Source of the DNA: an uncultured Gammaproteobacteria bacterium
GTDB taxonomy: Bacteria > Pseudomonadota > Gammaproteobacteria > GCA-001735895
Assembly: GCA_964488685.1 (NCBI GenBank)
Contig: CAZAVY010000004.1
Location: forward strand, 158-64,157
Reading direction: 5' to 3'
DNA length: 64,000 nucleotides
Part shown: in pieces, positions 3,087 through 48,196 of the stretch
How positions within the stretch are numbered: the stretch's first letter is position 1
How the letters are laid out: every line of letters begins with the position of its first letter
Program-made: the position numbers and the translations under genes
The notes under the pieces: generated by a model
The model's database searches: none
The model's input: the letters and a program-made list of their open reading frames with translations, nothing else
What the model was told of the DNA's origin: nothing

Positions 3087-3242
3087 TCCCGGCAAACAGT
3101 GTCGGTATTGATTTAAATTACCGACGATGCGCAACCTGTTCAGTGCAAAACACTAATCTGCATTTCTCGCCAACTTTAGTAGTGAGAAATGCCGGCTAGT
3201 AGAAATTGTTCGAATGCCTTCCCTGGCATGCCAGGTCGATGA

Positions 3243-18081: not shown

Positions 18082-18355
18082 AATATTCGACTGACTTTAT
18101 TGTTTTCATCCCTTTGGATGATGAATACTCTGTTGATTGTTTCCGCATCCAGAGCAAATCTAGTGAGGGGCGATAAAATCGCGCAATCCTGCGGACTCAA
18201 GAATATTTACGCAGATTTCGCCGGATTAGCAGGAGGCTACTGGGCAGTAGAATGGTTGTCAAGGGCTGTCGGGCTGGACCCAAAATTACCCGCGAGAGGG
18301 ATTTATTGGGCAAAGGGGCATGAGGAGTTTTACTCCTTTCGGGTTTCTTTAACAT

Positions 18356-18518
18356 AGCCCGGAGATTTCATGAACTGCCGCGATGATTGCGCAAGACTTT
18401 GTTTTCTCAGGAGATTTTCCGAAGAAGTGTCGGACCAATGGATCCGGCCGACTGAGGAAAATCTCCTGAGAAAACAAAGGTCAAGCAAGGGCGCGAGCAC
18501 GTTTATGAAATGTTCGGG
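18356..18518. mobile_element. MITE-like nested-palindrome element, copy A
   Basis: Termini CCCGGAGATTTCATGAAC / GTTTATGAAATGTTCGGG are inverted repeats. A perfect 24-bp internal stem (ctttgttttctcaggagattttcc / ggaaaatctcctgagaaaacaaag) is present. About 80% identical to the reverse complement of 47318..47490. Confidence 0.6.
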
Positions 18519-18522
18519 ATAG

Positions 18523-18918
18523 GTGACAGCGATGGGATTTTTGGTAAATACCTACCGAATGTGCATTCTCAACAACAGTGTATTCGGGTTGGAAGCTATT
18601 GGAGAATTGTTCTACCTACCAGAATTGTTGGCGCAGGGAGGTTGCTTGTCCAATGATCCTGCTATGGTGTATGCTTTCGAAACTGCGACCCAATCGAGCA
18701 TTAAACAAACAACTAAGGATGAACTTTACAGTGTCTTTTTCCCCGAGGTCGAACTGGTGAATCACATCGATGCAGACGCCGATGGCTGGCGACGGGCAGC
18801 GCTGTTTCATCTCGATGCACTTTATGGATTTGCGATGACAGTCACCCGCAATACGCACGATGTGGAAGACCTTGTGCAGGAAACCTACCTTATTACAAGC
18901 CGACGAATCATAATATAG
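18523..18918 (+). pseudogene. ECF sigma factor remnant (only region 2.1 retained)
   Basis: C-terminal part FHLDALYGFAMTVTRNTHDVEDLVQETYL matches the start of ECF sigma region 2 (compare DSLYRTALRMCGDHMNAQDIVQETCLKAY at 47555). It then stops, and regions 2.2-4 are absent. Confidence 0.5.
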
Positions 18919-19798
18919 ATGTCTGACTGCAACAAATTTTGTATCCAGCTAATCCTCTACCTGGACAATGAACTCAAGCAGAGAGAAAAGGCTTTAGTCG
19001 AGGTTCACCTTAAGGAATGTGCCGTCTGTCGCGAAGTATTGGCGCGAGAACGCGGGTTTCAAGAGGGTGTTGCGCATGACTCGCCACTATACACTGCGCC
19101 TGAAAGTCTGCGTACCCGGGTCGCATCGATAATCGCTGCAACGCCGGTAACCCCTCCGGTAAATCCTTTGAGAGCAGCGCGGCGTATTTTGTTTGGCCAC
19201 GATAACCATTACTTCAAATTTATTGCGCAAAATGGTACTGGTAACTGTAACGACTGTTTTGATGCTGGCGATAATATGGGCGGCAATGATTAAACTGAAC
19301 CCCGCACAATCGACAACATTTGCAGCCGTCGCTGTAGATACCCACCAGCGCAACACGCAGGGACGACTGCCACTTGAGTTGCGCTCGGACAGTCCTGAGC
19401 TAATTTCAAGCTGGTTTGAAGGAAAGGTTTCGTTTGATCTTGGACTCCCCGACTACCCCGAGGAACAGGGTCGGAATAAGTTATATCAATTGGAAGGTGC
19501 GAGGTTGATTGTATTCAATAACGACTACTCGGCTTACCTGTCGTACAAGACGGGGGTACGCGATATCAGTCTAATGGTGGCCCCCAGTTCTGTTGCAAAA
19601 CCTAGCGGTGGAGAAAAAATTCCATCGCAGGATCTAATCATTCATTACGACACGATTGATGAACTAAAAGCCATCACCTGGAGCCACCGCGATTTAACCT
19701 ATGCGCTGCTGTCAAATCTGGAAGAACGAGGCCAGCAATCCCGCCTGGTGTGTCACCGGGACAGCAATATTAACCTGGGTGCTAATTTTGATTCCTGA
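18919..19798 (+). pseudogene. zf-HC2 anti-sigma factor, frameshifted
   Basis: The zf-HC2 N-terminus (HLKECAVCREVL) is in frame 18919..19293. The TM segment and periplasmic domain continue in frame 19193..19798, which is paralogous to the intact anti-sigma at 48223. Confidence 0.6.
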
Positions 19799-21764: not shown

Positions 21765-21862
21765 AATTTTGCTTATTTAAACGGCCAGTTGTCCCTAGCC
21801 CGCATTTCTCATCCCTCTTCTACCGCGACCTTTCGCCGTTTTGCTACCAACGGTGGTGAGAA

Positions 21863-22351
21863 ATGCGGGCTCGCGAATTCTCGTTCAAAATTTACATCCG
21901 GCAACTCCTGTTGCTGTTTCTGCTTACTTTCACGGGTGTCGCTTTTGCGCAAAAGGAGTTGTATGAATTTAACGATCCCGCTCAAGAAGCGCTCTATCTG
22001 TCTTTGATCGCCGAATTGCGCTGCCTGGTTTGTCAAAATCAGAATCTGGCGGAATCGAATGCGGATCTGGCGAAGGATCTTCGCCAGAAGACCTGGGAGC
22101 TGGTGGTAAATGGGGAGACTGAGCAGCAAGTGATCGATTTCATGGTTAGCCGCTATGGTGAGTTCGTATTATACCGCCCCCCGGTTAATGCGCGTACCCT
22201 GTTTTTGTGGCTAGGGCCGTTCATACTGCTGGGCTGTGGAGTTGTTGCAATAGTGTTGTTGATTCGACGTCGCGACAAGGTGCTGCCGGAGTTCAATGCA
22301 ACCGATCGAGAGCGAGTGCGAGCACTGCTTGACGCGGAGGACGATCGCTGA
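21863..22351 (+). CDS. ccmH: cytochrome c-type biogenesis protein CcmH (NrfF-like)
   Basis: Signal peptide, the LRCLVCQNQNLAESNADLA motif (LRCxxC), and a C-terminal TM segment. Confidence 0.85.
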   Translation: MRAREFSFKIYIRQLLLLFLLTFTGVAFAQKELYEFNDPAQEALYLSLIAELRCLVCQNQNLAESNADLAKDLRQKTWELVVNGETEQQVIDFMVSRYGEFVLYRPPVNARTLFLWLGPFILLGCGVVAIVLLIRRRDKVLPEFNATDRERVRALLDAEDDR

Positions 22352-47280: not shown

Positions 47281-47317
47281 CTAGTAAGTATGAGAAAAAA
47301 TGCGGATCTATTCTAAA

Positions 47318-47490
47318 CCCGAACATTCGAACATTATCATATACGTGCTCGCGCCCTTGCTTGATCTTTAGTTTCCTCAGGTAAATTTCCGCAGTCGGCC
47401 GGATTCATCGGTCCGACACTTGTTCGGAAAACCTCCCGAGAAAACTAAGCCCTGTGAAATCATCGCGGTGGTTCATGAAATGTCCGGGCT
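47318..47490. mobile_element. MITE-like nested-palindrome element, copy B (inverted relative to copy A)
   Basis: Its reverse complement aligns end to end with 18356..18518 (agcccggacatttcatgaaccaccgcgatgat...caagcaagggcgcgagcacgtatatga...tgttcggg), with an extra gaacattc duplication. Confidence 0.6.
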
Positions 47491-47554
47491 AAGCAGTGAA
47501 TACGAAATTAATGGCCTTCATGATACGGCATGCTGAATGAAATTGTTTTAATCA

Positions 47555-48196
47555 ATGAACGGTAAGCTGCGAACCAACAGCTGTATCGATGCGAGACAGA
47601 CACGTAGCGCGTTCGAAGCGATGCTACGCCCATGTTTTGACTCATTATATCGAACTGCCCTGCGGATGTGTGGTGATCACATGAATGCTCAGGATATTGT
47701 TCAGGAAACCTGCCTAAAGGCATATAAGGGGTTTAGTAGCTATCAATATGACACAAATTTTAAAGCCTGGATTTTTCGAATTTTGAAGAATCACTGTATT
47801 GACAGCCACCGCAAAAGTATGCGTTCCCCAAAGGTTGAACTGAACGAAGACTTTCCGGACATGGCCGGGCATACGGATAAGCAGTATTCGCAGTATGAAT
47901 TACAGGGAGCTGAATTGCATTTGTTAAACAAATCATTCCGAGCTGAAGCGTTACACGCTATGCGCGAGCTTTCGCCGGATATCCGCATCGTCGTAATCCT
48001 CGCCTTACTGGAAGAAATATCCTATCAGGAAATTGCCGAAGTTGTGGGTTGCCCGATCGGTACCGTGCGTTCACGCGTTAGCCGTGGCAGGGGATATTTA
48101 AAGGAGTCGCTCAAGGATTACAATCCCGAAAGCGCAAAAACCGACCATAAAGTCACCGAGGCGGTGGCTTCGAAGGGTCAAAAGGTTGCCGGGTAA
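47555..48196 (+). CDS. ECF-type RNA polymerase sigma factor
   Basis: Region 2 AQDIVQETCLKAYKGF...FKAWIFRILKNHCIDSHRK; region 4 ISYQEIAEVVGCPIGTVRSRVSRGR. Confidence 0.85.
   Translation: MNGKLRTNSCIDARQTRSAFEAMLRPCFDSLYRTALRMCGDHMNAQDIVQETCLKAYKGFSSYQYDTNFKAWIFRILKNHCIDSHRKSMRSPKVELNEDFPDMAGHTDKQYSQYELQGAELHLLNKSFRAEALHAMRELSPDIRIVVILALLEEISYQEIAEVVGCPIGTVRSRVSRGRGYLKESLKDYNPESAKTDHKVTEAVASKGQKVAG

Follow-up and report, generated by a model that had tools for sequence, protein, structure and literature searches.

A short hairpin-forming repeat family with IS1380-type ends and target site in an uncultured vent gammaproteobacterium

The stretch of gammaproteobacterial DNA analysed here (the window, 64 kb) carries two copies, designated A and B, of a short palindromic repeat that is very probably a MITE, a non-coding, non-autonomous DNA transposon of ~160 bp with the ends and target site of the IS1380 family. 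Members of the family are 160-171 bp long and lack a transposase, end in terminal inverted repeats (TIRs), are flanked by target-site duplications (TSDs) of fixed length, and are dispersed as copies with unrelated flanks. The unusual feature of this otherwise ordinary element is the well-conserved shape of its hairpin.

A first-pass annotation had reported two inverted copies and had read them as fitting a non-autonomous mobile element, or else a structured RNA gene or regulatory module. Both copies lie where it placed them, A on the plus strand and B on the minus strand (Table 1), except that its intervals took in 2 nt of target duplication. Their end-to-end alignment also stands, at an identity slightly above the ~80% originally estimated (85% by MAFFT, 86.5% by BLAST), and the analysis recovered the TIRs, the 24-bp inner stem that is perfect in A, the asymmetric arms and the GTCGG..CCGAC hairpin at the centre. 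The absence of coding capacity holds as well: a 50-aa open reading frame spans copy A, but a stop closes this frame after 32 codons in the family consensus (160 bp), and its ATG is missing from the sequences of related subfamilies. The annotation had looked to a genome-wide BLAST search for copy number and insertion-site duplications, and had named a solitary pair within homologous flanks as the pattern that would speak against it; we found dozens of copies, a 4-bp TSD, non-homologous flanks, and ends in common with full-length IS1380-family elements, all of which support the mobile-element reading.

Similarity between A and B stops abruptly at both element ends, and the flanks beyond are unrelated. 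Copy B is the most diverged of the 45 full-length copies and reads as the oldest full copy of the family. It carries a tandem duplication of 8-9 nt beside its right TIR (window 47320-47330), which is missing from Logan contigs of the source metagenome (runs X1 and X2) and is therefore either polymorphic or an assembly difference. The window pair is simply two family members that happened to land in opposite orientation.

Table 1. Coordinates of the repeat copies, their parts and related elements. Unprefixed positions refer to the window; C numbers denote contigs of the genome, and L numbers other sequences.
Feature	Position	Strand	Remarks
Copy A, family-1 MITE	18358-18518	+	161 bp, 95.7% identity to family consensus
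Copy A, left target-site duplication ATAG	18354-18357	+	tetranucleotide recurs at 18519-18522
Copy A, right target-site duplication ATAG	18519-18522	+	
Copy A, left terminal inverted repeat CCCGGAGATTTCATGAAC	18358-18375	+	
Copy A, right terminal inverted repeat GTTTATGAAATGTTCGGG	18501-18518	+	18/20 terminus match to right end of IS1380-family elements in L034 and L018
Copy A, 24-bp inner stem, 5′ arm	18397-18420	+	perfect complement of 18456-18479; helix 6 of consensus structure
Copy A, 24-bp inner stem, 3′ arm	18456-18479	+	
Copy A, central hairpin GTCGGACC..CCGGCCGAC	18429-18452	+	bordered by conserved unpaired motifs CCGAAGAAG and TGAGG
Copy B, family-1 MITE	47318-47488	-	171 bp, 84.6% identity to consensus
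Copy B, target-site duplication, left end, TTAG (minus strand)	47489-47492	-	
Copy B, second duplication copy, TTTA (minus strand)	47314-47317	-	decayed, one mismatch
179-bp sister family, copies	C5:42741-42919; C18:25618-25796; C20:37729-37907; C36:5857-6035; C64:13578-13756		
IS1380-family elements	L034 214-1935; L036 317-2046; L018 ending at 1419		

Copy number, target site and genomic setting

A census of the family covered the draft genome from which the window comes (G000; 3.03 Mb in 159 contigs, 51.8% G+C). BLAST and nhmmer profile searches returned 45 full-length copies, 20 truncated where a contig ends, and 16 loci that are internal fragments or derivatives with deletions; these 81 loci are spread over about 60 contigs with unrelated flanks. 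Alignment of the copies together with their flanks placed the element boundaries at CCCGGAGATTTCATGAAC ... GTTTATGAAATGTTCGGG, a pair of 18-bp inverted repeats conserved in all full copies; the two helices that they form (helices 1-2) are 97.5% paired across subfamilies. Immediately outside them lies a 4-bp YTAR duplication, whose two sides are identical in 31 of the 45 full copies (CTAG 10, TTAG 8, CTAA 6, TTAA 5). In 14 cases the duplicated tetranucleotide is non-palindromic (CTAA or TTAG) and directly repeated on both sides, which identifies it as a TSD rather than an extension of the inverted repeats and rules out a TA duplication with longer TIRs in the style of IS630 or Correia elements. 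CTAG is overused about threefold, accounting for 32% of TSDs vs 10% of intergenic YTAR sites.

The copies are closely similar, with a median identity to the consensus of 96.2% and 11 copies at 97% or above, a distribution indicating a recent burst of transposition. In the source sample the element reaches a summed contig depth ~100-170 times that of its flanks, and at least 20 contig ends stop inside a family copy. The runs that hold most of the 64-kb stretch are hydrothermal-vent metagenomes.

All 45 full copies are intergenic between crude gene calls, and removal of any one of them restores no convincing long open reading frame. They show no preferred orientation relative to adjacent genes (16:14 for 3′ ends and 14:12 for 5′ ends), and no sigma-70-like promoter or intrinsic terminator was found within the element. 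Copies in this genome behave as selfish, nearly neutral intergenic passengers. Ten copies (C15:19976-20135, C7:7874-8033 and eight others) sit on the stop codon of a gene, with TAG or TAA contained in the YTAR, so that the duplication regenerates the stop; at the C15 copy, each of two convergent reading frames terminates within the duplications. The proportion of copies that abut a stop codon lying in the TSD (10 of 45) does not differ significantly from the 16% expected (p = 0.31). Judged by local GC skew, the G-rich strand of the element lies on the C-rich (lagging) strand in 31 of the 44 full G000 copies that have at least 6 kb of flank (p about 0.01); the corresponding counts in sister genomes were 12/21 (G014) and 12/22 (G005), and since the effect is not reproduced there, we treat a link between orientation and replication as unconfirmed.

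Within the genus, related elements occur in 8 of 37 genomes, two of which have large numbers of TIR hits (115 and 46), and the family is absent from all 24 of the genomes examined from other families of the class; its distribution is patchy within one genus. Near-identical copies are also found on contigs of other assemblies, in flanks unrelated to those of G000. One of these copies (L005; 161 bp, flanked by a CTAG duplication) interrupts a Y1-transposase-like gene; the homologue in G000 is intact. The contig concerned (CAZADB010000054.1, L005 1314-2384) is binned as Candidatus Saccharibacteria, an assignment that is doubtful because the nearest protein match lies in the present gammaproteobacterial genome (42% identity); by eye, the split gene is of the IS200/RAYT type. 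Searches for empty alleles returned only self hits when the joined flanks of copy B were compared with 60 genomes of the genus, and no joints for either window site among contigs of the source metagenome. Many metagenomes from marine sediments, cold seeps, the subsurface and vents contain exact family 31-mers (runs X5-X20 and X25-X32).

Relationship to IS1380-family elements

No intact IS1380 transposase of the matching type was found in this assembly, which holds two fragments only: one at the edge of contig C10, about 45% identical to the matching type, and one on C3 that contains a stop. The partner enzyme may therefore have been lost, or be unassembled or unbinned. A search for autonomous copies, as TIR pairs within 4 kb of each other across the genome, gave only MITEs and chance pairs; a 1742-bp "pair" around ffh on C6 proved to be two separate MITE remnants.

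The link to IS1380 comes from the rest of the genus. A PF13701 search located a transposase gene in the sister species G005, followed by GGTTTATGAAACATTCGGG and CTAG, and the element concerned is an IS1380 remnant with ends and a CTAG flank like those of the MITE. Two metagenome homologues of its product (91% and 88% identical to the G005 protein; 465 aa) sit in complete elements of 1722 and 1730 bp, which have the ends CCCGAATTATGCATAAAA... and ...GTTTATGAAACATTCGGG, start with CCCGAAT and carry CTAG on both sides. The 465-aa transposase matches PF13701 and also the NF033539 model, "IS1380 family transposase", for which its score of 402 bits exceeds the cut-off of 180. At the right terminus, MITE and IS agree at 18 of 20 positions, with an alignment score of 30 vs a maximum of 22 among shuffles. 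Further IS1380-family elements of the genus likewise begin with CCC and sit in YTAR, one of them, in G010, between TTAA and TTAG. Similarity between the MITE and the IS is confined to the terminal ~20 bp and the interiors are unrelated, so that only common ends and a common target are supported; an origin by internal deletion of the IS is not supported, as the MITE interior has no significant similarity to the IS ends. IS701/DDE_5 parentage was likewise set aside, there being no such gene in G000, G005 or G014. Comparison of termini and target, which are the same in both, suggests that the MITE family derives them from IS1380-type elements. The literature searched yielded no paper describing IS1380-derived MITEs.

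How such an element might move can be outlined from these comparisons. An IS1380-family DDE transposase supplied in trans would recognise the 18-bp TIRs (CCCGRA-N-ATTTCATRAAC) and would insert the element into YTAR tetranucleotides, with a preference for CTAG; staggered cleavage of the target followed by repair would then duplicate the 4 bp. The chemistry may be of the cut-and-paste kind, by analogy with piggyBac, a superfamily of DNA transposons that are the eukaryotic relatives of IS1380.

Members of the IS1380 family (IS1380, IS1247, ISEcp1, ISPme1; NF033539, PF13701) resemble the MITE in their CCC ends, 18-bp imperfect inverted repeats and 4-bp CTAG/YTAR duplication, and differ from it in that the MITE is 160 bp long, has no transposase and has an interior unrelated to the IS. 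IS1247 is tabulated with a 5-bp duplication (PMC3281130), vs the 4 bp found here for the MITE. IS1380 transposases have served as the prokaryotic outgroup of piggyBac (PMC10813416). A phmmer search of PDB with the IS1380-family transposase found nothing, and the structure model of the transposase (mean pLDDT 48.9) was too poor for a fold search. PiggyBac elements duplicate a 4-bp target, TTAA, and have CCC...GGG ends. The MITE resembles them in duplicating a 4-bp YTAR target that includes TTAA and in its CCC...GGG ends, whereas its host is prokaryotic and CTAG is preferred over TTAA.

Among bacterial repeats, Correia elements of Neisseria, ERIC and RUP are small, non-coding, high-copy and mostly intergenic, with TIRs and a target duplication, and can form a long hairpin when transcribed. 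The MITE is like them in each of these respects: it is small, non-coding, high-copy and intergenic, has TIRs and a target duplication, and forms a long hairpin. In contrast, it has no sequence similarity to them, belongs with another parent family (in Correia elements the TIRs measure 26 bp and the duplicated target is TA), and its hairpin extends over the whole length and is kept by compensatory changes. Palindromic intergenic repeats of Gammaproteobacteria also include REPs and REPINs. REPINs, which are mobilised by RAYT/Y1 enzymes, are not known to have a target duplication or DDE-type TIRs; the MITE has a 4-bp duplication and TIRs of the DDE type and is not one of them, and its sole link to a Y1-transposase-like gene is the one copy that disrupts such a gene.

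Other repeats came to light in the same searches. A 179-bp sister family with the same architecture and YTAR duplications (Table 1) corresponds to the subfamily of the G014 type with an 18-bp insertion. A third MITE family of IS1380 type, with the TIR CCCGCATTTCTCACCA, gives 50 TIR hits genome-wide; its copies range from about 37 to 175 bp and lie in CTAG/YTAR, and within the window they are found at 21799-21869 (71 bp, flanked by CTAG/CTCG), about 3155-3195, 17181 and 23860. Four copies of the third family (C125:~6042, C19:~6185 region 18185, C25:~22978 and C41:~403) are followed by an identical CTGATATGTTTTAACTTGCAACGAA, which places them inside another, larger repeat. An IS5-like transposase gene (DDE_Tnp_1_2; C37:29294-30174, L001 1363-2379) runs off a contig end.

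Conservation of the hairpin across subfamilies

At least five subfamilies can be distinguished in the genus: family 1 of G000, a G005 variant, the type found in G014 and G005, its 179-bp form in G000, and the G016 element. A consensus foldback built from 18 sequences of five subfamilies comprises 58 pairs, with 95.5% of cells paired. Both sides have changed in 28 of the 58 pairs; shuffled controls gave 15.5 +/- 1.5 such pairs, and sliding of the partners gave 4-8. The central hairpin differs in sequence almost wholly between subfamilies, yet its pairing is kept, and helix 7 shows double changes in 6 of 7 pairs. Since compensatory changes extend over the whole hairpin, we conclude that the foldback is under constraint, and the strong covariation of the internal stems is beyond what a simple MITE model requires.

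While the surrounding stems co-vary, unpaired motifs in an asymmetric internal loop (CCGAAGA... and ...TGAGG) are conserved; by eye, this loop, CCGAAGA.../...UGAGG, resembles a kink-turn. On the plus strand copy A folds at -95.5 kcal/mol (z = -12.5 vs shuffles), and on the minus strand at -76.4 kcal/mol. A hand tally of top-strand cells from the pair tables gave ~97 G-U and ~12 A-C. In the G016 element (L013), a homologous core, about 60-65% identical, lies between quite different TIRs, CCCGCATTTCTCACCA; the other IS1380-like fragment of G000 (contig 10) has an end that matches these TIRs.

We favour the explanation that the hairpin is retained because it serves the transposition of so short an element. 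Our best guess is that it helps the two ends to meet, the length of the element being close to the persistence length of DNA.

Alternative readings and significance

The covariation raises the question of whether the foldback is more than part of a selfish element. The internal ~120-nt hairpin could be a selected structured module, acting as RNA or as a DNA-strand hairpin, for which the IS1380-type ends are only a vehicle. The covariance analysis that the first-pass annotation had proposed speaks for constraint on structure, with compensatory changes in 28 of 58 pairs preserving the whole-length hairpin and 95.5% of cells paired over the 18 sequences; conserved loop motifs amid co-varying stems, the better folding of the top strand and the homologous core set between TIRs of a different IS1380 lineage in G016 are also consistent with such a module. 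The strand asymmetry, with G-U common and A-C rare on the top strand, is a further point in its favour, but the G-U excess depends on a few ancestral positions. Family words are likewise found in three RNA-Seq metatranscriptomes; these contigs are strandless and may include DNA, however, and one is a read-through into flanks. Orientation is random relative to neighbouring genes, the element has no internal promoter- or terminator-like site, an Rfam search of the 64-kb window gave no match (a permissive scan yielded only generic hairpin matches to models of miRNA precursors, which scored far under the threshold), copies within the genome decay freely, and constraints on transposition can likewise keep palindromes. 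We therefore consider it unlikely that the foldback makes the element more than a selfish MITE, and a structured RNA gene or regulatory module, the other natures suggested in the first-pass annotation, finds no favour as its primary identity given the lack of an Rfam match, promoter or terminator and the random orientation. Somewhat less improbable, with a small chance of being right, is the broader proposal that the foldback is a structurally selected module (RNA or single-strand DNA hairpin) that rides on IS1380-type ends, has passed between those of two or more lineages and has spread through marine sediment and vent bacteria; it would then either be required when very short piggyBac-like elements transpose or serve the host as a portable RNA structure.

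Parentage and genomic neighbourhood suggest two further readings. A 4-bp YTAR duplication is the classic signature of IS5, and the IS5/DDE_Tnp_1_2 transposase on C37 of G000 belongs to an element whose end is followed by CTAG; that end, however, is TTTTTGAGGAAACT and unrelated to the MITE termini, which match IS1380-family elements instead, and no IS5 N-terminal domain of the DUF4096 type was found in the genome, so that an IS5-family MITE is very improbable. The result is thus mainly a correction to how such a repeat would be annotated: the YTAR duplication points to IS5, but the ends point to IS1380, the bacterial relative of piggyBac. Least credible of all, to the point of near-exclusion, is the reading of the repeat as a segmental duplication or as a regulatory module of the host that is linked to ECF sigma/anti-sigma operons. 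Both window copies do lie just upstream of ECF sigma-type genes, A 4 bp from a decayed sigma/anti-sigma pair and B 66 bp from an intact sigma gene, but the flanks of A and B are non-homologous, the two copies present opposite ends to the sigma genes (A its right end and B its left), only these 2 of the 45 copies have such a neighbour, the other sigma homologues found lack an adjoining copy, and dozens of copies lie elsewhere beside unrelated genes. This reading is already refuted by the census, and we read the sigma neighbourhood of both copies as coincidence. As to the genes themselves, window 18523-19293, downstream of A, holds a decayed ECF sigma gene in which a stop interrupts region 2 after only ~35 codons; the start of a zf-HC2-type anti-sigma factor comes next, in frame with it. 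The intact paralogue beside B occupies 47555-48196. Intergenic placement, random orientation and patchy distribution together argue for a MITE and against both a segmental duplication and a host regulatory module.

The repeat is, then, a genuine MITE family of the ordinary kind, with IS1380-type ends and target. It fragments the assembly and marks a recent burst of transposition in an uncultured vent gammaproteobacterium. Of greater interest are the compensatory changes, which preserve the hairpin over its full length, and the occurrence of one core between two kinds of IS1380 ends. If transposition requires the hairpin, the family would reveal how a piggyBac-like enzyme copes with elements that are too short for bending; if the hairpin functions as RNA, the element would be a mobile structured RNA.
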